Origin: Candidatus Parcubacteria bacterium
GTDB taxonomy: Bacteria > Patescibacteriota > Patescibacteriia > Patescibacteriales > UBA12465
Reading direction: 5' to 3'
Length of the DNA: 64,000 bases
NCBI GenBank assembly: GCA_023444045.1
Contig: JAEZRQ010000005.1
Span: forward strand, 37,726 to 101,725
Both the position numbers and the translations under genes were made by a program. The notes beneath the pieces were generated by a model, which saw nothing but the letters and a program-made list of their open reading frames with translations, did no database searches and was not told the DNA's origin. Positions 1,679 to 59,111 of the stretch are shown piece after piece. Within the stretch, counting starts at the first letter, position 1, and every line of letters starts with the position of its first letter.

Positions 1679-2854
1679 ATGTCTAAAAATTATTTAATTG
1701 TTAACACTGGTAGTGCTTCTAAAAAGTATGCTTTTTATCAAGATAGAGAGAAGGTCTTTACCGCTCACTTTGAAATGGAAGAGAGGAACTACATTGTTAG
1801 CGAAAACTATCAAGGGGAAGTGAATAAGAAAATTCTAAATAAAGAAGAGTATATAGAAGCAGTGGGGGTGGTAATTGCCTCTCTGATAGAAAATAAGATT
1901 ATCGGCTCTCAAACTGAGATCCATTTAGCGGGTGTGAGAATTGTCGCTCCTGGTGAATATTTTTTAACTAATCGTCTAATTGATGAAGAGTATCTGAAGA
2001 TGGCGGAAGCTGCTTTGCAAAAAGTGCCACTCCATTTAGGTCCCGCCTTAGAAGAAATTAAAAACTTAAAGAAATTTTTAGGTAATGATTTTAAAATAGT
2101 TGGTGTCTCTGATACCACTTTTCATGCCACCATCCCAGAAGAAGCTAAATTTTACGCCATCCCTAATAAAGATAGTCGGGAATTGGGTCTTTACCGTTTT
2201 GGTTATCATGGCATTTCAGTTCAATCAGTCACTAAAAGAGCCTCTAAAATGCTTGGCGGGTTACCAGAAAAAACTATTGTTTGTCACTTGGGCGGAGGCG
2301 CCAGTGTAACAGCCGTAAAAAATGGTCAGAGTCTTGATACCTCTATGGGCTTTACTCCTCTTGAAGGCTTAATTATGGCTACTAGAGTGGGCGATATTGA
2401 CCCAGGGGCCGTCTTATACCTTTCTGAAAAATTAAATAAAGATTTTAAGGAACTGGAGAATTATTTTAATAATGAATGTGGTCTACTGGGACTATCTGGT
2501 AAAAGTTCTGATATTAGAGAGTTAATAGAATACGAAAAAAATGGTGACCATGATGCCACTTTAGCGCTAACTATTTACGTTAACCGCATCAAACAATATA
2601 TCGGCCGTATGGCGGCGATGCTGGGCGGAGTTGATTTATTAATTTTAGCCGGAACGGTTGGTGAGAGGTCTAATATTATCAGAGGAAGAATTTGTCAAAA
2701 TTTAAATTTCTTAGGAATTGAGCTGGATGAAGAGTTAAATAATACTTTAATTGGAATAGAAGCTGAACTTAATAAAAAAGAAGCAAGGACAAAAATCCTG
2801 GTTATAAAAACAGATGAAACCGAAGAAATCGCTCAAATAACTTATAATCTATAA
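1679..2854 (+). CDS. ackA: Acetate kinase
   Basis: 391 aa. N-terminal LIVNTGSASKKYAFY (ASKHA phosphate-1 motif) and GFTPLEGLIMATRVGDIDPGA are typical of acetate/propionate kinases. Confidence 0.9.
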   Translation: MSKNYLIVNTGSASKKYAFYQDREKVFTAHFEMEERNYIVSENYQGEVNKKILNKEEYIEAVGVVIASLIENKIIGSQTEIHLAGVRIVAPGEYFLTNRLIDEEYLKMAEAALQKVPLHLGPALEEIKNLKKFLGNDFKIVGVSDTTFHATIPEEAKFYAIPNKDSRELGLYRFGYHGISVQSVTKRASKMLGGLPEKTIVCHLGGGASVTAVKNGQSLDTSMGFTPLEGLIMATRVGDIDPGAVLYLSEKLNKDFKELENYFNNECGLLGLSGKSSDIRELIEYEKNGDHDATLALTIYVNRIKQYIGRMAAMLGGVDLLILAGTVGERSNIIRGRICQNLNFLGIELDEELNNTLIGIEAELNKKEARTKILVIKTDETEEIAQITYNL

Positions 2855-2861
2855 ATAAAAA

Positions 2862-2888
2862 AACCGGCTTCTAAGAGTCGGTTTTTTA
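2862..2888. terminator. Bidirectional hairpin terminator between ackA and the pilin-like gene
   Basis: AAAAAAACCGGCTTCTAAGAGTCGGTTTTTT: an ACCG/CGGT-based stem flanked by an A-run and a T-run. Confidence 0.6.
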
Positions 2889-2902
2889 AAATAGTAAAAT
2901 TA

Positions 2903-3406
2903 TTAATGCAAAATCAAATAGTAATTCCAAGCCCCAGTTTGATTAGAGCTTAAGATAATATCATCTAAATCAGTATTTTCTCTTTCGGTGGTAAATTTAA
3001 TTACACTTTGTCCAAAAAAATTAATAGCAAAATGACTGCTATCAGGATCACCATAATAATCCAAAAGTTCAGCATCTAAATTTTTAAAATAGCAGTATTT
3101 GTAAGGATCTTTAGAAATTGGGTCCTTGGGAATATTTTCCATATACCCAGCCAGGGCCGGTTTAAGACAGGTATCCCAGGTAACTTCATCCTGACAAGTG
3201 TTGCAATCAGGATAGGCCCCATGATCATCGCGGTAATAATCTAAAGCCATCGCCATCTGCTTAACATCAACCAATCTAATTCCGTCTCTAGAGTTAGCCC
3301 TAAAAATTTTAATTGAAATTGTGATTGTAGTCGCTAAAATACCAATAACAGCAATCACCACCAAGAGCTCAATTAAAGTAAACCCTTTTTTTCTAAATAA
3401 ATTCAT
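2903..3406 (-). CDS. Type IV pilin / pseudopilin-like protein with prepilin N-terminal methylation motif
   Basis: MNLFRKKG|FTLIELLVVIAVIGILA is a classic prepilin peptidase cleavage/methylation site followed by a hydrophobic helix. Confidence 0.85.
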   Translation of the reverse strand: MNLFRKKGFTLIELLVVIAVIGILATTITISIKIFRANSRDGIRLVDVKQMAMALDYYRDDHGAYPDCNTCQDEVTWDTCLKPALAGYMENIPKDPISKDPYKYCYFKNLDAELLDYYGDPDSSHFAINFFGQSVIKFTTERENTDLDDIILSSNQTGAWNYYLILH

Positions 3407-3457
3407 AATATTTAAATTACTCTTTTATTATATCTTTTAAGAATTAATAAGGCAAAC

Positions 3458-3586
3458 AAAAAAAGAGGGCACCGTCGTTGTGACTTTGCCCTCATAATTA
3501 CTTTGCTTGCACCGGAGGGTGCAGCATCCAGTCTGGCACGTAGCCAGACAAATCGTGTGTTTCTCTCATTATTTTTTAGTTTTAGC
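3458..3586 (-). ncRNA. Candidate structured RNA (standalone sRNA or riboswitch-like leader) ending in an intrinsic terminator upstream of the pilin-like gene
   Basis: Lies downstream of the consensus promoter at 3593-3621. Three hairpins on the minus strand: GTCTGGC/GCCAGAC (3531-3549), GCACC/GGTGC (3509-3522) and GAGGGCA/TGCCCTC (3465-3493). The last is followed by a 7-nt T-run (plus-strand A-run 3458-3464). No ORF. Class unknown. Confidence 0.4.
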
Positions 3587-47946: not shown

Positions 47947-48225
47947 ATGAATACCACCGTGATAAATATTAAAACTAGTGAAGAAGTAAAAAAAGAGGCT
48001 CAGAAAATAGCCTCTGATTTAGGTTTAAATCTAAGTGTGGTAATTAATGGCTTTTTAAAACAGTTAGTTAGAAATAAGGCCGTCTTTTTTACTTTAGATG
48101 AGAGTCATCCAAGTAAATATTTATTAAATTCTATTAAAGAATCAAAAAGCGATAAAAAAAATAAAAATACGCATTCTTTTAAAAATAACCGAGAAGCCCT
48201 CTCCTTTCTTGATGATAAAAAATGA
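47947..48225 (+). CDS. RelB/DinJ-family type II antitoxin
   Basis: 92 aa. The N-terminal ribbon-helix-helix-like INIKTSEEVKKEAQKIASDLGLNLSVVINGFLKQLV parallels DinJ. ATGA overlap with the toxin gene. Confidence 0.8.
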   Translation: MNTTVINIKTSEEVKKEAQKIASDLGLNLSVVINGFLKQLVRNKAVFFTLDESHPSKYLLNSIKESKSDKKNKNTHSFKNNREALSFLDDKK

Positions 48226-48491
48226 AAATAGAATACTCTAAAAGATTTATTAAAGATTTTAGAAATTCACCAAAATACATAAGGAATAAGTTTAAGTTAT
48301 GCTTAGAAATTTTTATTGAGGATAAAAATAATAGGCTACTTAATAATCACCCACTTGTAGGAAGACTAAGTAGCTACAGAAGTATAAACATCACCGGAGA
48401 TTGGCGAGCGATTTTTGAAGAGTTAAATGACAATATTGAGATTACTGCCTATTTTATTGCTATCGGCACTCATAGCCAACTTTATAATTAG
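48222..48491 (+). CDS. RelE/YafQ-family type II toxin (mRNA interferase)
   Basis: 89 aa. NHPLVGRLSSYRSINITGDWRAIFE...IGTHSQLY matches the RelE/YafQ C-terminal pattern. Confidence 0.8.
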   Translation: MKIEYSKRFIKDFRNSPKYIRNKFKLCLEIFIEDKNNRLLNNHPLVGRLSSYRSINITGDWRAIFEELNDNIEITAYFIAIGTHSQLYN

Positions 48492-48590: not shown

Positions 48591-50720
48591 TTATTTTATT
48601 ATCCCTCCCTGCCCGCTTAGAACTTTAGCTCTGAAGGCAGCCTCACTAGCCTCTTGCTCGTTACCTAAATTACTATGAATCTCTGAAAGTAAATTCCAAG
48701 ATTCAGCACTATTTGGCTGAAAGACAACTAGTTGTTTGGCCATGACTAGAGTTCTATCCCAATCTTCCGCTAAATAGTAATGCTCTGCTAACTCTAAAAA
48801 CTCAGTACTCATATTTAAGGTCTCAGCGCCGCCAAAATCAACACATTTATCACCGTTTGCAAAAGCTAACTCATCTTCACCCGTCATCTTATAAAACTTA
48901 AATAAATTGCAGTAGGCATCAGGAAAATCTGGGTTAAACTCAATTGATTTTGTCACTAGAGCGATTGCTTCATCAGATCTGTCTAGCATCATTAAAATAT
49001 TAGCCTTAAGGAAATATAGAGGTAAGCGCTGTGGACTTAAAGCAATAGCCAAATCAAGATGTTCTAAAGATTTTTCAGTATAAGCCTCATCTTTAGTGAA
49101 GTTAAAAGCCAGGCCATACATTTGGGCGGTCTGTAACTGCATTAAACTATCTTGGGGGTTATTCAGTAAATTCTCTTGAGCTAATTTTAGAGCGTAATCT
49201 ATTACTATTTTTTTATCTTCATCACTTAAAGCCTCCATAAACTGTGTGTTACTCATTAGACCATTTAAGAAAGAATTTTTGCCATCACGATCAAGCGGTG
49301 TTTCATTTTTAAAGGCATCTTGATAGGTGCTTACTGACTCCATAATCTGCCCTTGCGATAATAAACGGTAGCCATTAATAACGCCACTAAAAGTTTTCCA
49401 CGGTTTAATATTAAAGTGATTAGTTAAAATTAAAACCAGTAATAATCCAATAGCTAAAAGACTAGTCTCTGGAATTTTCTTTTCCGTTTCTTTTTCTGAA
49501 TTGGGGTTAATTAGATAATAAATATAAGCCAAAGAAATCATCAGCCCAATATAAGTCACCAGAGAATCAAAAATGGCTAGATTCTGAATAAAGTAAGCGA
49601 CAAAGAGGCCAATTAAAATAATCGGCTCTAAATTATGACGGTCCTGCTTGATAATTCTAAGTAGATAAAAAGCAACCGCTATAAAAATGCTTAGATAAGC
49701 GATTAAGCCAACCAGCCCAGTGGTTGAGACAATATCAATTAGATTATTATGAGCCCGATCAAAATAAGTGTCGCCTCTAGAATATTCATAAAAACGAGCA
49801 TTAAAGTGGCGGTCAAAGATGTCGGCATAGTTACCAAAACCAACCCCAAACCAAGGGTGATTATGAAAGTCTTTAGCAGCTGCTTCCCAGGAAACTAAGC
49901 GGGTTTGAAAAGTATTTTTTTGTGAGGTTAGGTTCCTTAAAAAGGAATTCTGAAACCAGGCGGCTTCTTGCTGAGAAAAGATAAAGGTAAGAACTAAAAT
50001 AGCCACCGCTAAAGCACTCCAAGCGGCAATTTTAATCTTTTTATTCTGATGCAGAACACCAATGAGGAAGACAACAAGAAGAACACTGATTCCTAGGCCA
50101 ATAATCGCCCCTGAGGTGCGTGTTTTACTAAATTCCAGTAACATTATTAGAACTGGAATTAGCAAACTCCAGCGCCAATTTTGGCCCTTAGCCCGATAAA
50201 ACAAGAGAGCGGCAAAATAGATATTAAATATGATATAACCACTAACATAAGCAGTATTGCCAATAGTGCTATAAGGATTACCAGCTAAACCAATCACACT
50301 AACGATAGTAGCAATCAAAACTGAAGAACCCAGAAGAATCTGCCAGTCTTTTTGAGTTCTAAAAACAGTGATCAAGATTAAATAAAGAAAAAAGAAGTGG
50401 ATAATATGAAAAACGCCAAGCATTCTCTCCGCATCACCCCAGAAACTAAGCAAGGGGTCAACACTAGAAAAACAGGACCAAGTAATAGCCAAAAGAAAAG
50501 CAACTATTCCCCAAGTGATAAAAGACCTTTTAGGGCGATATGAAGGAAACTTCCAGATAAAGATTAACCAGAAAACCATCAAGAACTCAGTTAAAATATT
50601 AAAGGTTAACTGCTTGGAAGTGATATACGGAAAAAGCAAACCGGAAAAGACTAAAAAAACAGTCAACAAAGAAGCGATAGCTCCTATTTGTAATAAGCGA
50701 AGATAGAATTTTGAAGTCAT
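48591..50720 (-). CDS. O-antigen ligase-like polytopic membrane domain fused to a C-terminal TPR repeat domain
   Basis: 709 aa. About 12 hydrophobic segments with the RAHNNLIDIVSTTGLVGL motif. The C-terminal ~280 aa have TPR-like repeats (AIALVTKSIEFNPDFPDAYCNLFKFY...). Confidence 0.75.
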   Translation of the reverse strand: MTSKFYLRLLQIGAIASLLTVFLVFSGLLFPYITSKQLTFNILTEFLMVFWLIFIWKFPSYRPKRSFITWGIVAFLLAITWSCFSSVDPLLSFWGDAERMLGVFHIIHFFFLYLILITVFRTQKDWQILLGSSVLIATIVSVIGLAGNPYSTIGNTAYVSGYIIFNIYFAALLFYRAKGQNWRWSLLIPVLIMLLEFSKTRTSGAIIGLGISVLLVVFLIGVLHQNKKIKIAAWSALAVAILVLTFIFSQQEAAWFQNSFLRNLTSQKNTFQTRLVSWEAAAKDFHNHPWFGVGFGNYADIFDRHFNARFYEYSRGDTYFDRAHNNLIDIVSTTGLVGLIAYLSIFIAVAFYLLRIIKQDRHNLEPIILIGLFVAYFIQNLAIFDSLVTYIGLMISLAYIYYLINPNSEKETEKKIPETSLLAIGLLLVLILTNHFNIKPWKTFSGVINGYRLLSQGQIMESVSTYQDAFKNETPLDRDGKNSFLNGLMSNTQFMEALSDEDKKIVIDYALKLAQENLLNNPQDSLMQLQTAQMYGLAFNFTKDEAYTEKSLEHLDLAIALSPQRLPLYFLKANILMMLDRSDEAIALVTKSIEFNPDFPDAYCNLFKFYKMTGEDELAFANGDKCVDFGGAETLNMSTEFLELAEHYYLAEDWDRTLVMAKQLVVFQPNSAESWNLLSEIHSNLGNEQEASEAAFRAKVLSGQGGIIK

Positions 50721-51021: not shown

Positions 51022-51048
51022 CAAAAAGACCCTCCAAGAAGGAGGGTC
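51022..51048 (-). terminator. Intrinsic terminator of the giant surface-protein gene
   Basis: GACCCTCC-AAGAA-GGAGGGTC, followed on the minus strand by TTTTTGT. Confidence 0.85.
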
Positions 51049-51094
51049 TTTCGTTAATTCTTAATGAATTAAGAATTTCTTATTAAAAACTATA

Positions 51095-54000
51095 CTAGTT
51101 TTTAATAGTAACACCATCAACTTTAGTAGTTGATAATCTTAAATCAGTCTTATCAGAAGCTGTTAAAGCGTCTTTCCAAGTAAGATTTGTAGTTAGATCA
51201 TCTAAACTTACATTGATTGAACTATCACCAGCAATAGCTGCTGTGAATGTTGGGACTACTTTTACTAAGAAGTAAGCTGTTTCACCAGGCATAACTTCAT
51301 AATCAGCGCCAGAAAGAGTAGCAAAAGTAGTTGATGTAGCAGCTGGGGTTCCAGTTACTGCAGCAGCGGTACCATTTACTCTTTCGATAGAAGCAGTGTA
51401 AGAAGTAATCTTAGAAGAAGTTGCAACTCCTACAACAATTTGACTGATTCTAGTTTTAATAGAATCACCATTTTGTTCAGTGTTAGAAGAAACTGGAGCT
51501 GTTACTGAAATAATAGCAGCATTAGCAGCTTGTCCATCTGTAAGACTTAATGAACGACTTACATTTCCAGCGCTACCAACTAAATCAATACTAGAAATCC
51601 TAGAAGCAACAACAGCCATTTTCTTAGAAACTTGTGTTGATACAGCGCTAGAAGTAATACCAGCAGCGGTATAATCAGTGCTATAACCAATTTCACCAGA
51701 ACCTAAAATAGTATCAGCGCCATTGTTGACTAATGATTCACCAGAATTATATCCAGTAGCCTCAATGTTGTTTACTTTTAAAGTAATATCAGCAGTTGAA
51801 GTACCGGTCTGGTCTTTTCCAATAGGAGATAATTTAGCTTTTACGTAATAGTTCTTTGAACTCATTGGAACAATCATTTTATCACCAGAAATCTCAATAA
51901 CAGAGCTTGTGGCAATAATATTAGTAGAACCAACTAAAGTAGAACCGTCGTAAATACCTAATTCGGTAACTAGACCGTTTAGATTTTCGCTAGCCTCAAC
52001 AGTTAACTTAGTAACTTTAACAGTTTCATTTTCTGCTTTTAATTTTAAAGCAGCAAGAGCACCTGTTTCAGCGCCAGCTAATTGGTAAGAATCTCTATTT
52101 GTTGAAGAATCACCATTATCCATTGCAACATATAAAGATCCAGTACCAACCATAGCAACTGTTCTTGCAGAAACTAAAGTTGTCCATGGGCTAGTTGGGG
52201 TTGGAGTAATAGTTTTTCCATCACTAGCTTCAATACTAGCATCTTTTAAAGCAAATTTAATGTTTTTTGTAGAAGAATCAGTATTCTTTACAAAAGAAAC
52301 AGTTACTTTATAAGTGTTTGTATCATTTGCATTAACCTTTTCACTTAAGTCAGTGAAGGTTAAATCAGTACCACCACCAATTTGTGAAGATGATACAGTT
52401 TTAACTAATGAATCGCCCTTCCAAAGCTTAACAGCAGAAACTGTCTGAGTGCTGAAAGCAAGGCTTCCTGATTCCTTTTCGATTGTTAAATCTCTAAGAT
52501 AAGCATCGGAATTTTGAGCTGCTTTAACATTGAAGTTTAGAACTTCAACATCTGAAGTGCCAATAACAGCAGTATAAGATGATGATAAAGCGTTTAATGA
52601 GAAAGTAGCACCGGCTGTTTCTACAGCAACTTTCTTAAGTTCAACTGTATTAGGAGTAATGTCACCAATTACAGTATCATTGCCAGTTTCTTTAATGATT
52701 AAATCATTAGCAGCATCTGCAATTTTTACAGTGTAATCTTCGTTAGTGGCAGTTGATAAGGTATCAAATCTGACTACTAATTCATTTGTAACACCACTGG
52801 TTAACATTAAGCCCATGCTTGTATTAGCATAAACTTTTACACCAGAAGCTGTAGTTGTTGAAACATGAGACAAATCATAAACAGTGTTATTAGTCTTGTT
52901 GAAAACTTCTACATTCTCAATCTTGGTGAAAGATGAAGTTGCAGCAATATTATCATTAGTTGAAGTGATTGTTAATCTTAAAGTTGATAATTCAGCATTT
53001 TTACCGCTATTAGCAGTAATCTTGAAGGTACCAATTTCTTGATTATCAACATCAACTCTTAATTTATCACTAGCAGCATTAACTTTCTCAATGCTAACAG
53101 TACCAGCTTTAACAGTAACCAATCTTGATGTTAATGTAGTTGCGATTTGTGATTGGTATCCATAGTAATCACCAGTTGCCACAACATCAGAAGCAGCTTC
53201 GATAACAAGACCAATTGTTTTTCCTGCTCCATCAACTACGTCAGCAGTAACAGTTAATCTCTTGTTAGAGATACTCTTATTGATAGTAATTGGGTTGTTC
53301 AATGTAAAAGTAACATAACGATTTGATATAGAAGGTGCGCTAGCAACCTCTTGACCATCGAAATTTAGTTTTAGATTTTCAACAACACTATCAGAAGCGG
53401 AACTTGCAGGGTCCTTTTTAAAGGTTATTGCTTTAACGGTAATGTTTTCAACATCGTCATTAGCTAATTTTACTTTAGCAATAGTAGCACCTTTATCACC
53501 TAATTTTACTTCAGATAAAGCACTGTCGTCAGTGAAAGTTAATTTACCAACGGCGACAGTAGCTGCAGTGAAAATATTACCAGCAACTGGGAATGAACCA
53601 GAAACAGTGTTTCCAGCCATAACATCAGAAGCTTTAGCAATACTTAAACCATGCTTACCGGTTCCTGCAGAAATCAAAGCTCTTACTTCGAAAGTAGCAG
53701 TTGTTCCAGCTGGAATAGTTACAGCATTTGTGAAGTTAATTTGCGCCTCTTTATTTGAATCAATGTCACGAGCAGTGTTATTTAATTTAACATTATCTTT
53801 GTAAACAGAGATTTTCTGAATGTTTTGAGGGGTCCCCAAACCAATAGCACTTAGCTTGACTCCAGAAATCACAGCTGGACCATCGTTAGCAGCAGTAATA
53901 TTGAATTTCAACATTGTGTTTGCTGTACCGATAGGTAGGTCGTTAGCAGCTGGGGTAGTAGCTGATAAGCTGACAGTTACGCCAGAACCAGTTACAACTG

Positions 54001-54685
54001 GACCAGTGGTTTTGCTTTGTGGAACATAAGCGAATTCGCTAGTAGAGATAGCTGAACCACCTGCAGTAATAGCAGAAGAAACAGTAACTACGTTAGCGAA
54101 ATCAAATCTATTAGCATTGAAGGCTGCTTCGTTAGCAATAGAGCGATAGTTAGCACCATCATAGTAATAGATAGTACCAGAATCAGCTGTTTTTACTAAA
54201 GTACCAGCAGGAACTTCATTAGCTGCTAGAGGAGTTCCGATGGTGTAGTTGGTGAAGAAAGCGTCAGCAACGTCAACAACTCTCTTTGCCCAATTTGCAC
54301 CAAACATAGCGATAGCATCAGCTTCGCTTTGGATTTTTCTTAATACGCCATTTGGTTCAACAGCATATACAGAAGGATCAGTAGTGATCTTAATTAATTT
54401 TGTACCTGGTCTCATTACAATGTTAGAACCTAATGGGTAGCTCTGTAATTCTGAAGCAGAAACAGTTACTACGCCACTGAAATCCTTGTGCCATGAGAAG
54501 TATACAGCCTCACTTGGATAAACATATCTTTTACCGTCGTTGCCCAAGTAATAAACGGATGATAATCCGTCCATCTTGATAAGGTCGCCAGCTTGTGGAG
54601 CGGCAGCGCTTGCGCTTAGACCAAGCATTGAAAATGCAGTCATGACCATTACGCCAACGGTTAAAAACTTGCGTAATTTTTTCAT
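51095..54685 (-). CDS. Giant exported Thr/Ser/Ala/Val-rich surface protein (S-layer/adhesin-like), hypothetical
   Basis: ORF 51095..54718. Preferred start is ATG 54685 (MKKLRKFLTVGVMVMTAFSMLGLSASAAAP, a signal peptide), giving 1196 aa. No Cys. Long beta-rich repetitive body. N-terminal LIKxxxxSSVYYLGNDGKRYVYP module. Alternative start at 54718. Confidence 0.8.
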   Translation of the reverse strand: MKKLRKFLTVGVMVMTAFSMLGLSASAAAPQAGDLIKMDGLSSVYYLGNDGKRYVYPSEAVYFSWHKDFSGVVTVSASELQSYPLGSNIVMRPGTKLIKITTDPSVYAVEPNGVLRKIQSEADAIAMFGANWAKRVVDVADAFFTNYTIGTPLAANEVPAGTLVKTADSGTIYYYDGANYRSIANEAAFNANRFDFANVVTVSSAITAGGSAISTSEFAYVPQSKTTGPVVTGSGVTVSLSATTPAANDLPIGTANTMLKFNITAANDGPAVISGVKLSAIGLGTPQNIQKISVYKDNVKLNNTARDIDSNKEAQINFTNAVTIPAGTTATFEVRALISAGTGKHGLSIAKASDVMAGNTVSGSFPVAGNIFTAATVAVGKLTFTDDSALSEVKLGDKGATIAKVKLANDDVENITVKAITFKKDPASSASDSVVENLKLNFDGQEVASAPSISNRYVTFTLNNPITINKSISNKRLTVTADVVDGAGKTIGLVIEAASDVVATGDYYGYQSQIATTLTSRLVTVKAGTVSIEKVNAASDKLRVDVDNQEIGTFKITANSGKNAELSTLRLTITSTNDNIAATSSFTKIENVEVFNKTNNTVYDLSHVSTTTASGVKVYANTSMGLMLTSGVTNELVVRFDTLSTATNEDYTVKIADAANDLIIKETGNDTVIGDITPNTVELKKVAVETAGATFSLNALSSSYTAVIGTSDVEVLNFNVKAAQNSDAYLRDLTIEKESGSLAFSTQTVSAVKLWKGDSLVKTVSSSQIGGGTDLTFTDLSEKVNANDTNTYKVTVSFVKNTDSSTKNIKFALKDASIEASDGKTITPTPTSPWTTLVSARTVAMVGTGSLYVAMDNGDSSTNRDSYQLAGAETGALAALKLKAENETVKVTKLTVEASENLNGLVTELGIYDGSTLVGSTNIIATSSVIEISGDKMIVPMSSKNYYVKAKLSPIGKDQTGTSTADITLKVNNIEATGYNSGESLVNNGADTILGSGEIGYSTDYTAAGITSSAVSTQVSKKMAVVASRISSIDLVGSAGNVSRSLSLTDGQAANAAIISVTAPVSSNTEQNGDSIKTRISQIVVGVATSSKITSYTASIERVNGTAAAVTGTPAATSTTFATLSGADYEVMPGETAYFLVKVVPTFTAAIAGDSSINVSLDDLTTNLTWKDALTASDKTDLRLSTTKVDGVTIKN

Positions 54686-55101
54686 ATTTGTGTTTAAGGA
54701 TTCAGAAGTAAGTGTCATTAAAATAGTAGTAATAACAACTTCCTCCTGAGATTTTTACTCAGATCAAGCGCCAATCAACGGAGATTCCATCAAATAAATC
54801 GATCGGAATCCCGCTCCTCTAGAACGAATTCTAAAGAAAAGCTAAATCGATTTACCATCAGAACTTCCAGCCGATTTTTGCTTCTCACTGAGTTTTTTGG
54901 TTTTTAACAGAACGAAAGCCATCTCTTGCGAGACTCGACCCTTTACGGGGTTTCGCTGATCCGTCTAAAGCGAACTTTAAAGCGGACCTGTTAATTTATC
55001 TCTTCCGTTTGACCAAATCAGATGAATCAGAAATGACGAATCTTCCGAGAAGGGGTTGGGGGTGAGATAAACTAACAGCTCAGCCTTAAAATTAAGGCAG
55101 A
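54686..55101 (-). promoter_or_regulatory. Long ORF-free, hairpin-rich 5' leader (or independent structured RNA) upstream of the giant surface-protein gene
   Basis: About 380-415 nt with no ORF of 60 aa or more in any frame. Minus-strand hairpins have stable tetraloops: UAGAA-UUCG-UUCUA (54820-54833) and UCUC-GCAA-GAGA (54922-54933). A long GGAG/GATTCC...GGAATC/CTCC hairpin spans 54780-54817. CTGAG/CTCAG (54746-54762) abuts an AGGAGG (54742-54747). Confidence 0.45.
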
Positions 55102-55851
55102 TTATTTTATCAGATCATTTACTTCTTTTAACTTGTTAAGCGCTTCAGTGTAATTCTTGCTATCAAATAAATTTTTGGCTTCTTCTAAAATCTTAGTAGT
55201 TGAAGAAACGCTTGGCTCTACAGCAGTAGTCACATCATTAATGCTTAGACCACTATCTTCTTTTTCCAAAGTGGCACTTAAAATTAAATCGGAAGAGGTG
55301 CTGCTTGGTTCGCTTGTATCATTTTTTTGTACAAGCGGTTGCTCTAGTCTAGCTACCTTGCGTTGTACTGTTTCAATCTCTTGATTAAAACGAACGTTTA
55401 ACTTAGCAATTTCTTCTTCATTGTTAAATTCTGGGTCAGCCAAAACGGAAGTAATATCTTGAGCGTTATTGGCAGCAAATTTAACCGCCATCTTCTCTCT
55501 TTCATTAGTATCTAAGATGGTGCTTAATTTTGCCTTTTCAGAAATTTCTCTGGCGATATATAATGACTGGTCTGGTCTAGTTTTAGAAAGTAATAGATGC
55601 GCATAAGAACTAGAAGCAAAAACCACTAGTAATAATGAAGCCAAGGCAACGGCCGGACTGGAAGCGGTTTTCACTAAACTCTTGAAGTTAATCACAAAAG
55701 CGGTCCATGAGGACAGATTAGTGGCTCCAGAGTTGGAAATTTGGGAATACAAAGAATCCCGATTCGCTTTTAACCAGCTAGAATCGGGTTTAATTTCCCT
55801 AAGATTAGATAATTTTTTGATTAAATCTCGGTCAGTCATAAAATTGCGCAT
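55102..55851 (-). CDS. Anti-sigma-like single-pass membrane protein (DUF5667-like, tentative)
   Basis: Start refined to ATG 55851 (MRNFMTDRDLIKKLSNLREIKPD...); 55839 is also possible. Central TM AVALASLLLVVFASSSYAHLLL. Helical extracytoplasmic domain. Lies directly downstream of the ECF sigma gene. Confidence 0.6.
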   Translation of the reverse strand: MRNFMTDRDLIKKLSNLREIKPDSSWLKANRDSLYSQISNSGATNLSSWTAFVINFKSLVKTASSPAVALASLLLVVFASSSYAHLLLSKTRPDQSLYIAREISEKAKLSTILDTNEREKMAVKFAANNAQDITSVLADPEFNNEEEIAKLNVRFNQEIETVQRKVARLEQPLVQKNDTSEPSSTSSDLILSATLEKEDSGLSINDVTTAVEPSVSSTTKILEEAKNLFDSKNYTEALNKLKEVNDLIK

Positions 55852-55927
55852 TATTACGACATAATATACGTAAAAAAACAAAAAACGTTACAGTCAAGCT
55901 ATAGCGTTTTTGTATTACAATATAAGC

Positions 55928-56506
55928 TTACTTCTCCTCTGCCTCTAGCAGTTCTTTAAGGGCAGCCAAAGAACGATGAAGTAGTACTCTGATGTTGCCT
56001 TTAGTTTTGCCAGTGACTTCACTAATTTCATCAAGCTCCAAATCGTTCACAAATTTTAAAACAATAATTTCCCGGTATTCTTCCTTAAGTAAAGGTAACT
56101 TGCTCTTTATTTTAGCCAGATCATTCTGCCTGTCAATTTCCTGATTTAAGTCCTTAGAATCATCTACTATTTCAATTGGTCTTTCTTCATCGTCTAAAGA
56201 AAACTCTACTTTAGAGCCATTTTCCCGGTAGTAATCAACAATAGAAGTTCTGGCAACTTTATAAAGCAAGGCTCTTAAAGTACTGGCGCTGGTTAAACTA
56301 TTGTTCTGAATATGATTCCAGGTCTTAAGGAATATCATTGAGGTTAAATCTTTTGCCTCCTCAACGTGCCCAATCTTAAAATAAACAAAGCGATAAATAT
56401 CGCCAGCAAAATTATCATACACCTCAATAAAGACTTCCTTGTCTTTATTTTTAAGACGGCTAATAGTTTGTTTATCTTTAAATTTTTGAACTAATGATTG
56501 TGCCAT
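55928..56506 (-). CDS. ECF-type sigma-70 family factor
   Basis: 192 aa. Region 2 (IYRFVYFKIGHVEEAKDLTSMIFLKTW) and region 4 HTH (EISEVTGKTKGNIRVLLHRSLAALK). Confidence 0.85.
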   Translation of the reverse strand: MAQSLVQKFKDKQTISRLKNKDKEVFIEVYDNFAGDIYRFVYFKIGHVEEAKDLTSMIFLKTWNHIQNNSLTSASTLRALLYKVARTSIVDYYRENGSKVEFSLDDEERPIEIVDDSKDLNQEIDRQNDLAKIKSKLPLLKEEYREIIVLKFVNDLELDEISEVTGKTKGNIRVLLHRSLAALKELLEAEEK

Positions 56507-56757
56507 TTTCTTCTGAAATTTTGATACAAAACAAGGGAATGATTAAAGTTCCCCGCTCTTATAATCCTATTTTCGTTATCAAATTCTAGCATAGCTGGGT
56601 GAAAAAAGCAAGGTATCAAAGAGTTTTTAAGCCTAAAATAGACTACGCTTTTTAAGGATTTTTCTTCTAAAAAATAGTTCCCTAGACTTGACTTTTAATT
56701 ATTAATAGGTAAGAATTAAGTTACTTCTGTCTAAGATATGTTGGACTTAAATACTAT

Positions 56758-57129: not shown

Positions 57130-57525
57130 ATGACTAAAACAGAAACTATCAACACCCCAGTCACTTTAGAGGGGGTTTCTCGGCTTTTGCTAGAGAATAA
57201 CATCATCCTACTTAAGGCGATGGATGATAAGATTAGAGAAAACAACATCATCCTGCTTAAGGCGGTTGATGAGAAGATTGAGAAAAGAATTAAAGAGAAC
57301 AACATCATCCTGCTTAAGGCGGTTGATGAGAAGATTGATCAGAGAATTAAAGAGAACAACATCATCCTACTTAAGGCGATGGATGAGAAGATTGAAAAAA
57401 GGATCAGAGAGAATAATGACTTCATCTTTACAAATTTCAATGACCAAATTAACAGAATTGTTGATCTATTTAATGGTGTTATTAGAGTTAGAAAAGATGG
57501 CACCTTTAGAATGGAGATTCTTTAA
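57130..57525 (+). CDS. Tandem-repeat coiled-coil protein (19-aa units ENNIILLKA[VM]DEKIEKRIK), hypothetical
   Basis: 131 aa. Chosen over the overlapping alternative-frame ORFs because it has a non-repeat N- and C-terminus and is followed by a terminator. Confidence 0.55.
   Translation: MTKTETINTPVTLEGVSRLLLENNIILLKAMDDKIRENNIILLKAVDEKIEKRIKENNIILLKAVDEKIDQRIKENNIILLKAMDEKIEKRIRENNDFIFTNFNDQINRIVDLFNGVIRVRKDGTFRMEIL
57193..57408 (+). repeat. Tandem repeat, one 45-bp plus three 57-bp units, in-frame
   Basis: Units at 57193-57237, 57238-57294, 57295-57351 and 57352-57408. Outer units share CTACTTAAGGCGATGGAT and inner units share CTGCTTAAGGCGGTTGAT (an A-B-B-A pattern). Confidence 0.9.
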
Positions 57526-58083: not shown

Positions 58084-58806
58084 TTAAAGGGTTTTTTGCC
58101 TTTTTATCTTGAGATATTTTTGCCTTTCTTTTTCTGGAAATTTTTCAATTGCATAACGCAACATTGTTCTGGGCATTTTGTCTGCATGAGAATTTAAAAA
58201 ATTAGTTAATACTTTCTTGTCTCTTTTACCAAGCTCTCTTAACATCCAACCACTAGCTTTATGCATTAAATCTTCTTTGTCATTTAAAAGTGCCGTTGCT
58301 AATTTAATAGTATCTTCTGTTTCGCCAAATCTAATAAAAGCCACACAAGAAACCATTGCTAAACGACGCTCCCAAAGATTTTTTGATTTAATAAACTGGT
58401 AAAGAATTTTTCTTTCTTCCTTATGGCGCAATAAGTAATCGCCCATAATCTTATAAACCGATAAATCAACTAAGTCCCAATTGTTAGCGGCAGCTCGGTG
58501 TTTGATATAAAAGTTATAGATTTCCTTACGCTCATTATCAGCTTTAGCCTTCTGATATTTTTCCACTAAAATAGTAAGTCCGATTAGGCGTAATTCATGA
58601 ACCTTGTCCTTTAAGAGTTCTGTAACATTCTTTAAATCCAGTTCTTGGTAATCTTTAGCAATTGACTTCATTTCTGGAACATTAAGCCCCCAAAAAACAT
58701 CCCCTGCCCCATATTGCCCCGGAGCGGTCTTAAAAAAGTACTTAGAGTGTTCGGCTCGTTCCTTGGAATACAAGGACTTGGCTTTTTTAATAATTTGTTG
58801 TAACAT
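58084..58806 (-). CDS. DNA alkylation repair protein (AlkD/AlkC-like HEAT-repeat glycosylase family)
   Basis: 240 aa. YFFKTAPGQYGAGDVFWGLNVPEMKSIAKDY and WMLRELGKRD resemble the PF08713 family as I remember it. Confidence 0.75.
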   Translation of the reverse strand: MLQQIIKKAKSLYSKERAEHSKYFFKTAPGQYGAGDVFWGLNVPEMKSIAKDYQELDLKNVTELLKDKVHELRLIGLTILVEKYQKAKADNERKEIYNFYIKHRAAANNWDLVDLSVYKIMGDYLLRHKEERKILYQFIKSKNLWERRLAMVSCVAFIRFGETEDTIKLATALLNDKEDLMHKASGWMLRELGKRDKKVLTNFLNSHADKMPRTMLRYAIEKFPEKERQKYLKIKRQKTL

Positions 58807-58970
58807 ATTGAGTTAATTTACGTAATCTATATAAAGTAAGTTAACAAGTAAGTCCTCTTCCGAGAACTGTCTGTCATAAACGGCAAATAGCTCTCGGAAG
58901 GGCGATTGTCATAAGACATTCACAGTCTAGGATTGGTCACCTAGATTTCCCTTCTTTAAACAATAGATAT

Positions 58971-59111
58971 ATGTTTAGAGAAATTGCCGGATTCTTAGGA
59001 ATCCTCCTGATTGTGAAAATCGCACTTCCCAGTGAAATTGGCGACTTAATAACAGAAATTCTAATGAACATCTTAAACATCATTAGAGATTCTCTTAGCC
59101 AGGTTCACTAA
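58971..59111 (+). CDS. Possible 46-aa membrane peptide (below the ORF-track cutoff)
   Basis: Own translation: MFREIAGFLGILLIVKIALPSEIGDLITEILMNILNIIRDSLSQVH. Followed by a strong terminator. Confidence 0.35.
   Translation: MFREIAGFLGILLIVKIALPSEIGDLITEILMNILNIIRDSLSQVH

Follow-up and report, generated by a model that had tools for sequence, protein, structure and literature searches.

The ultra-small Patescibacteria (candidate phyla radiation) make up a huge and mostly uncultured share of bacterial diversity, and next to nothing is known of their cell envelope or of how it is regulated. A stretch of 64,000 nt from Candidatus Parcubacteria bacterium (assembly GCA_023444045.1, contig JAEZRQ010000005.1, positions 37,726-101,725 of the forward strand; hereafter the window) raises the question of whether an extracytoplasmic function (ECF) sigma factor could be wired to a single giant surface protein. 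Its minus strand carries, in this order, the gene of the sigma factor, the gene of a single-pass transmembrane (TM) protein, a long gap and the open reading frame (ORF) of a very large secreted protein (the giant protein). Our ORF calling agrees with the coordinates at which an earlier sequence-only reading had placed these four co-oriented elements, and the order is kept in relatives. The module is conserved across a large clade of Patescibacteria (Falkowbacteria and relatives), and the long gap is filled by a structured RNA. The reading that we favour, with a rough probability of 0.55, is that the first two genes form a sigma/anti-sigma pair, that an ECF promoter within the unit drives the TM gene, the RNA and the giant gene as one transcript, and that the RNA would act in cis.

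The evidence that carries the module is its conservation. We have scanned one genome per species with a profile of the TM protein and obtained 76 loci (labelled L001 to L076), in which ORFs were called and then searched with the three window proteins (sigma, TM and giant). In 73 of 75 loci the sigma gene immediately precedes the TM gene, and in all 60 loci with sufficient contig the giant gene lies downstream of the TM gene on the same strand, with median gaps of 38 nt between sigma and TM genes and about 490 nt between TM and giant genes. A complete Falkowbacteria chromosome, with independent gene calls, shows the identical order. As an independent sample, an 18-nt invariant stretch of the RNA was scanned over metagenome contigs; it gave 120 exact matches, 31 of which fit the RNA profile. 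The giant gene follows the RNA in every one of these 31 loci, and the TM gene precedes it in all those with upstream sequence (24/24). Adjacency, on whose persistence in relatives the sequence-only reading had made its proposal depend, is therefore kept in genomes and metagenomes alike (60/60 and 31/31). More than 839 homologues of the giant protein and 243 of the TM protein were found, and among those with a source name most bear the label Patescibacteria or Falkowbacteria. Many of the loci (L002, L003, L005, L009-L014 and others) come from third-party-annotated records of metagenome-assembled genomes titled "uncultured Gammaproteobacteria bacterium"; the records carry a typical Patescibacteria module, and these titles are probably labelling errors.

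Seven distant loci (L069 and L071-L076 except L074), labelled Saccharibacteria, Nealsonbacteria, Minisyncoccales, Portnoybacteria and Staskawiczbacteria, retain the sigma and TM genes, and in five of them the pair precedes a different large secreted protein. Some loci have insertions, all of them co-oriented, either between the TM gene and the leader or between the sigma and TM genes. For example, a gene of about 267 aa resembling S-adenosylmethionine-dependent methyltransferases sits between the TM gene and the RNA in five loci (L009, L011, L019, L055 and L066), and a HicAB-like pair is inserted at the same place in L013. In the loci with such a gene or pair between the TM gene and the RNA, the RNA remains with the giant gene and the ECF promoter with the TM gene.

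The sigma factor matches the Pfam families Sigma70_r2, r4_2 and r4, contains only the sigma2 and sigma4 regions in its 192 aa, and passes the ECF model TIGR02937 (73.4 bits, cut-off 42.9), so that its first assignment to the ECF group stands; the best specific model, the BldN-family TIGR02952, remains below its cut-off (109.4 bits vs 206.45). The promoter proposed for it (TTGCTT at 56611-56606, a 17-nt spacer and TAGAAT at 56588-56583) is present, with a TG extension, and a regular expression for its equivalent (TTGcTT-N14-16-TGnTAnnnT) finds a match upstream of the sigma gene in 60 of 73 related loci. Its type is that of a housekeeping sigma70 promoter with extended -10. In the window's clade, about 42 loci have, downstream of this promoter, a hairpin with a conserved U tract (TTATTTTTTGTTAA, CCCGTTATTTTTTGTTAA) whose arms covary from locus to locus (CGGG/CCCG, AGGG/CCCT, CAGG/CCTG). 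We considered this element as an ECF promoter and rejected it; the spacing of the arms varies and the arms covary, and it is therefore a stem. A second group of loci (L057-L065, L068 and L070; hereafter clade 2) has no hairpin before the sigma gene and has an ECF promoter there instead. The hairpin thus occurs only in the clade where the sigma gene is without an ECF promoter of its own. Judging from its sequence, it could possibly be an attenuator.

What the sigma factor itself might recognise is suggested by a second conserved element. In 66 loci there is a motif TGTAAC-N16-CGTAT (consensus AACTGTAACaTTTT-N7-TTTTaCGTATA) whose position is fixed. Loci of the window's clade have it typically about 36 nt before the start of the TM gene, and the TM message would therefore be nearly leaderless; in the window, alignment of homologues puts this start at the conserved MTDRDL (55839). 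In clade 2 the motif lies 32-45 nt before the sigma gene, directly after the housekeeping promoter, which is the classic autoregulatory position. A loose form of the motif, searched as a regular expression over both strands of 1.09 Mb of loci (about 2.2 Mb in all), occurs 127 times, which is about chance level; only the fixed positions and the strict form are meaningful. The sequence-only reading had suggested a search for a -35/-10 pair common to the region upstream of the sigma gene and the leader. Such a pair exists inside the unit but it is not shared by those two regions: in the window's clade it is located between the sigma and TM genes (55892-55866) and not in the leader. Sites inside the leader or at the 3' end of the TM gene were also sought by motif scan and discarded, none having been found.

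The strict motif appears once more in the window, as TGTAAC-N16-CGTAA at 58799-58824 of the plus strand, some 145 nt before a hydrophobic ORF of 46 aa (58971-59111) that is followed by a terminator-like inverted repeat (region to 59160). The small ORF is conserved in six of the loci (L002, L003, L013, L020, L023 and L049; seven genomes with the window), and in each of the six GTAAC-N16-CGTA is found 177-217 nt upstream of it. Two or more conserved transcription units are thus marked by the motif, which is what a small regulon would lead one to expect. We infer that the sigma factor recognises the TGTAAC-N16-CGTAT promoter, and the unit of the 46-aa membrane ORF is likely, from its upstream motif, to be a second target of the same sigma.

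The likely partner of the sigma factor is the TM protein. The window copy scores below threshold against DUF5667 (PF18915; 13.6 bits vs a cut-off of 27, E=0.096). Matches to this family appear in 16 of 26 homologues (best 4.9e-7), and the TM family is therefore a divergent DUF5667 branch, so that the resemblance proposed for its ectodomain holds for the family while the window member stays sub-threshold. An AlphaFold2 (AF2) model (predicted local distance difference test score, pLDDT, 66) has a cytoplasmic N terminus of 45 aa with three short helices, followed by the TM helix. Outside, the model shows a three-helix DUF5667-like bundle (pLDDT 80-87), a disordered and variable linker and a conserved C-terminal helical hairpin. 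An overlap of 4-20 nt between the sigma and TM genes of clade 2 is suggestive of translational coupling. The protein displays some of the features by which membrane anti-sigma factors are recognised, i.e., a gene adjacent or coupled to that of the sigma factor, a single pass through the membrane and a cytoplasmic N terminus. Because of the adjacency, the overlapping genes of clade 2 and the topology, we consider it a probable anti-sigma factor.

At the other end of the module, the giant protein had been described as an exported, cysteine-free and beta-rich protein of about 1196 aa built of Ig-like repeats, a description borne out by its composition, its structural model and the Foldseek matches. 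It contains no cysteine, and T, A, S and V add up to 44% of its residues. Its N terminus reads as a signal peptide (MKKLRKF, a hydrophobic stretch and the end SASAAAP); the ORF spans 51095-54718, with the conserved start MKKLRKF at 54685. The AF2 model (mean pLDDT 87) consists of the signal peptide, an alpha/beta module (approximately residues 30-220) and about eight Ig-like beta-sandwich domains, and the best PDB matches of this model by Foldseek are surface proteins with Ig-like domains in tandem (PrgB, alpha-2-macroglobulin, integrin legs and antigen I/II). At the level of sequence, no match was obtained in Pfam, NCBIfam or the PDB, and an exact-sequence lookup returned no record of the window protein. 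Identity to homologues decreases from about 75% at the N terminus to about 30% at the C terminus, and the Ig-like array evolves fast. Being secreted, poor in cysteine and divided into a conserved anchor end and a variable exposed part, the protein has, in its sequence, traits of surface-layer (S-layer) proteins, and we infer that it is the main surface coat (S-layer-like), anchored by the N-terminal module. The first ~120 residues of this module are also found at the start of secreted proteins about 270 aa long, of which some have cupredoxin or copper-binding domains. Because it heads these other secreted proteins, cupredoxins included, the distribution of the module suggests a general cell-surface anchoring module of Patescibacteria.

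Between the TM and giant genes lies the RNA. The gap in the window amounts to 383-416 nt, depending on the giant start, and the RNA is 420-500 nt long in relatives (about 416 nt in the window). With nhmmer, the window leader finds 43 loci by nucleotide similarity alone, including some in which protein identity is about 40%. The profile of the RNA matches once in each locus, and always in the interval that runs from the TM gene (or an inserted gene) to the giant gene; the matches in clade 2 are weak, and most relatives have an internal domain of about 70 nt that the window's clade lacks. We have discarded the minus-strand nhmmer matches as additional copies, as they correspond to the self-complementary P1 helix. 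In one locus (L038:2680-3544) two partial matches to the profile lie in tandem (2680-3047 and 3167-3544) within a TM-giant gap of 864 nt, possibly through duplication or through an insertion into the RNA.

The secondary structure is strongly supported by covariation. RNAalifold gives 66 pairs for an alignment of 36 leader sequences (A3), and compensatory changes are seen in 24 of these pairs. When a structure with 11 helices and 68 pairs is considered, 97.5% of the cells have standard pairs and 25 pairs (144 cells) have two-sided changes. None of 500 column shuffles attains any of the observed measures, and when the partners are slid by 1-3 columns pairing falls to 32-46%. Many conserved G-U pairs would be A-C on the opposite strand, and the RNA is therefore read in the direction of the genes. 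The window leader by itself has a minimum free energy of -129.7 kcal/mol (z=-5.6), with helices that agree with the alignment structure, and its last ~19 nt, including the AUG, are unpaired in this fold. A peptide-coding leader was rejected, given that indels are not multiples of three and that the changes are compensatory base-pair changes. No gathering-level match to Rfam was found in the whole window, and the leader gave only chance-level matches (E>1, searched to E 10). From sequence comparison the RNA appears to be a new family. It is a conserved structured domain 5' of the giant gene on the sense strand, as cis-regulatory leaders are.

The RNA begins about 10-40 nt after the upstream stop codon, whether the gene upstream is the TM gene, the inserted methyltransferase gene or the HicA-like gene, and ends at the giant start codon. 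It abuts the upstream ORF and is therefore probably intercistronic. Some 15-20 nt before the AUG stands a long hairpin with covarying arms and an invariant UACUAUU loop, and there is no Shine-Dalgarno sequence next to the AUG; invariant unpaired stretches, including GGAGCGGGAUUCCGA and UUAAGCUUUUCUCCAGC, occur elsewhere in the RNA, and alternative pairings near the AUG, seen by eye, are suggestive. A hairpin in that position, together with invariant unpaired stretches and a multi-helix architecture beyond the needs of a stabilising hairpin, would suit a leader that is not a passive stabiliser but a riboswitch-like element sensing a ligand or a protein, or else an element of processive antitermination such as EAR, the eps-associated RNA of Bacillus eps operons, which the location between genes of an envelope operon would also recall. 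This is possible but doubtful: nothing in Rfam matches, riboswitches and EAR included, no clear terminator/antiterminator alternative was identified, and a length of more than 400 nt is far above the typical size of an aptamer.

These elements can be assembled into one circuit, along the lines of the favoured reading of a sigma/anti-sigma pair acting on one transcript with a cis-acting RNA. The sigma gene would be transcribed from its housekeeping promoter and, in the window's clade, damped by the hairpin. The sigma factor would use the TGTAAC-N16-CGTAT promoter before the TM gene. With the TM protein as its anti-sigma factor, the anti-sigma gene would itself be sigma-dependent, resulting in negative feedback in the window's clade. 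Transcripts begun at the ECF promoter, together with those reading through from the sigma promoter, would cross the RNA into the giant gene, and an envelope signal that frees the sigma factor would lead to more surface protein. The RNA would act in cis on the giant message, either as a stabilising or processing 5' structure or through translational or antitermination control. Read-through is proposed because the gene strand has no predicted terminator from the sigma gene to the giant gene and because the leader abuts whichever ORF lies upstream.

Several observations weigh against this circuit. With regard to the TM protein, no anti-sigma domain (zf-HC2 or RsrA-like, RskA, class II) was matched in Pfam or NCBIfam by the window protein or its 26 homologues, so that the homology to anti-sigma factors envisaged for it was not recovered, and a Foldseek search of its model against the PDB gave only generic helical bundles, uninformative for an anti-sigma function. 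With regard to the giant protein, it carries no SLH, CWB2 or other known S-layer anchor, and its N-terminal module has no Pfam family and no solved relative, a PDB profile search having given chance matches only. Finally, there is no ECF motif directly upstream of the giant gene or the leader, and a sigma70-like sequence, TTAAAA-16-(TG)TAAAAT, lies in the last codons of the TM gene (55131-55104), with similar matches in many loci.

The TM protein could, for instance, be an accessory for the export, anchoring or assembly of the giant protein, with the sigma factor regulated otherwise, e.g., by the attenuator-like hairpin. The undetected anti-sigma domain fits such a role, as does the small size of the cytoplasmic part (some 45 aa); the TM gene of the window's clade does not share the sigma promoter but has one for itself, and in the model the conserved C-terminal hairpin and the DUF5667-like bundle would face outward, toward the giant protein. 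We nonetheless find this role unlikely. The TM gene keeps its place directly after the sigma gene in nearly all loci (73/75), overlapping it in clade 2 (4-20 nt), and the pair persists in distant lineages where the downstream surface protein is a different one. Moreover, short N-terminal anti-sigma domains are known elsewhere (class II anti-sigma domains and the N-terminal domain of RsgI).

The sigma70-like sequence at the end of the TM gene bears on the giant gene itself. If real, a promoter hidden there would uncouple the giant gene from the sigma factor: the gene would be constitutive from a housekeeping promoter, the RNA would be a stabilising 5' untranslated region, and the sigma pair would sense the state of the envelope or surface layer and control only the TM gene and the 46-aa gene. 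An abundant surface-coat protein is expected to have a strong constitutive promoter, and S-layer genes with long stabilising 5' untranslated regions are known. The candidate ends about 7 nt before the leader, matches of the type TTRAAA-16-TAAAAT recur in the conserved KLKEVxEIIK* codons of many loci, and the ECF motif is absent from the leader. We consider this arrangement rather unlikely all the same. Hexamers resembling promoters are common in AT-rich DNA (the region has 26 matches vs 19.9 expected), and the candidates are inseparable from the conservation of the peptide that they encode. In addition, the leader still starts right after the stop of the methyltransferase or HicA-like gene, where no convincing common promoter was found; contact of the RNA with three unrelated upstream ORFs, each in other genomes, speaks against its having a separate promoter.

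This possible housekeeping promoter is the main uncertainty of the favoured circuit. The claim that a sigma system is wired to this surface protein has gained a conserved unit with an internal ECF promoter; it has lost direct control, as no ECF motif is found immediately before the giant gene, and any such wiring would therefore have to be read-through from the TM gene across the leader. A bolder and, in our estimate, somewhat improbable proposal is that a new, Patescibacteria-specific class of large structured RNA actively gates the main surface-coat protein through sensing of a ligand or protein, self-processing or antitermination, in series with the ECF sigma/anti-sigma sensor, as a hitherto unknown two-layer envelope circuit.

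The features of the window are collected in Table 1. The unit is closed by the strong terminator that had been noted at the end of the giant gene, with a stem of 11 bp (6 GC pairs) and a T run on the minus strand.

Table 1. Features of the module and its surroundings (positions in the 64,000-nt window).
Feature	Position	Strand	Length	Description
Wzy_C + TPR membrane protein	48591..50720	-	709 aa	
Bidirectional intrinsic terminator	51025..51051			Closes the unit
Secreted surface (giant) protein	51095..54685	-	1196 aa	
Structured leader / intercistronic RNA	54686..55101	-	~416 nt	
Single-pass membrane protein (TM protein)	55102..55851	-	245-249 aa	ORF up to 55881
ECF-type promoter	55866..55892	-		TGTAAC-N16-CGTAT, inside the 76-nt sigma/TM gap
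ECF (group 4) sigma factor	55928..56506	-	192 aa	
Terminator-like hairpin + U tract, 5' leader of sigma gene	56526..56554	-		GGGGAA..TTCCC TTGTTTTGT
Sigma70-type promoter of sigma gene	56583..56611	-		-35 TTGCTT, 17-nt spacer, TGc-TAGAAT extended -10
Second ECF-type motif + leader + ORF	58799..59111	+		Leader ~145 nt, ORF 46 aa

A loosely linked neighbour is the gene beyond the terminator, which has its own sigma70-like promoter site (50775-50747) and encodes a TPR protein with a Wzy_C domain (Pfam 3.3e-17) of the O-antigen ligase / O-oligosaccharyltransferase type. Of 37 loci, 24 have a Wzy_C gene in the same orientation within 5 kb downstream of the giant gene, and in 13 of the 37 it lies no more than 1.5 kb away. 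In the Portnoybacteria locus L075, a Wzy_C gene also comes after the giant-like gene. Because enzymes of the Wzy_C type include protein O-oligosaccharyltransferases, it is possible, by analogy, that this neighbour glycosylates the Thr/Ser-rich giant protein. On the plus strand, two overlapping ORFs of 92 and 89 aa (47947-48491) resemble a RelB/DinJ-type antitoxin and a RelE/YafQ-type toxin, and an ORF of 131 aa (57130-57525) consists of tandem repeats of a unit like ENNIILLKAVDEKIEKRIK and has no Pfam match.

A literature search found no prior description of the module, of a function for DUF5667, of an S-layer in Falkowbacteria, of ECF sigmas in Patescibacteria or of the RNA, in agreement with the initial remark that no such regulatory unit had been characterised in the candidate phyla radiation; one preprint mentions predicted S-layer proteins in Patescibacteria in general terms only. 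In the giant gene family a large clade has a concrete candidate for its major surface or S-layer-like protein, and the sigma factor gains, from sequence alone, a predicted promoter with at least two target units. The third element is a large covarying RNA absent from Rfam. Few structured RNAs above 400 nt lack an assigned function, and their biochemistry has often proved to be unusual. The coat candidate, the promoter assignment and the RNA are all open to tests in heterologous hosts and metatranscriptomes.

The locus can be compared with known systems. The sigma/TM pair resembles SigW-RsiW, SigX-RsiX and SigM-YhdLK of Bacillus subtilis in having a sigma factor of sigma2 and sigma4 regions only, an adjacent single-pass membrane protein and targets in the cell envelope, and also, in clade 2, in the autoregulatory placement of the promoter. 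The motif TGTAAC-N16-CGTA itself, whose -35 contains AAC and whose -10 contains CGT, resembles the -35 of SigX and the -10 of SigW promoters. In contrast to those systems, only the anti-sigma-like gene has the ECF promoter before it in the window's clade, whereas the sigma gene has a housekeeping promoter and a hairpin; the partner has a DUF5667-type ectodomain and no recognisable anti-sigma domain; and the downstream target is fixed, a single gene for a giant surface protein that is preceded by a large structured RNA.

Long structured 5' untranslated regions are found in Lactobacillus slpA, Thermus slpA and Caulobacter rsaA, and the likeness lies in a long stable fold before the gene of a secreted, cysteine-free surface protein, with a presumed role in the stability or translation of the mRNA. 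However, the RNA described here measures 420-500 nt, is conserved in nucleotides among species whose proteins are about 35-40% identical, has at least nine covarying helices and invariant loops, and abuts the upstream ORF. With EAR it shares the condition of a conserved structured RNA between genes of a cell-envelope operon, before a long transcription unit, but there is no match in sequence or structure, it is about 3-4 times larger, and no downstream terminators that would have to be bypassed were identified in the unit. The S-layer leaders and EAR come closest among known RNAs, and the present one, much larger and better conserved, corresponds to neither. As for the giant protein, signal peptide, Ig-like arrays and the combination of a conserved anchoring end with a variable exposed part are common to PrgB, antigen I/II and the SLH- or CWB2-anchored proteins. 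Unlike the adhesins and S-layer proteins of monoderms, it has no LPXTG, SLH, CWB2 or LysM anchor, and its N-terminal module, which also carries cupredoxin passengers, appears to be specific to Patescibacteria.

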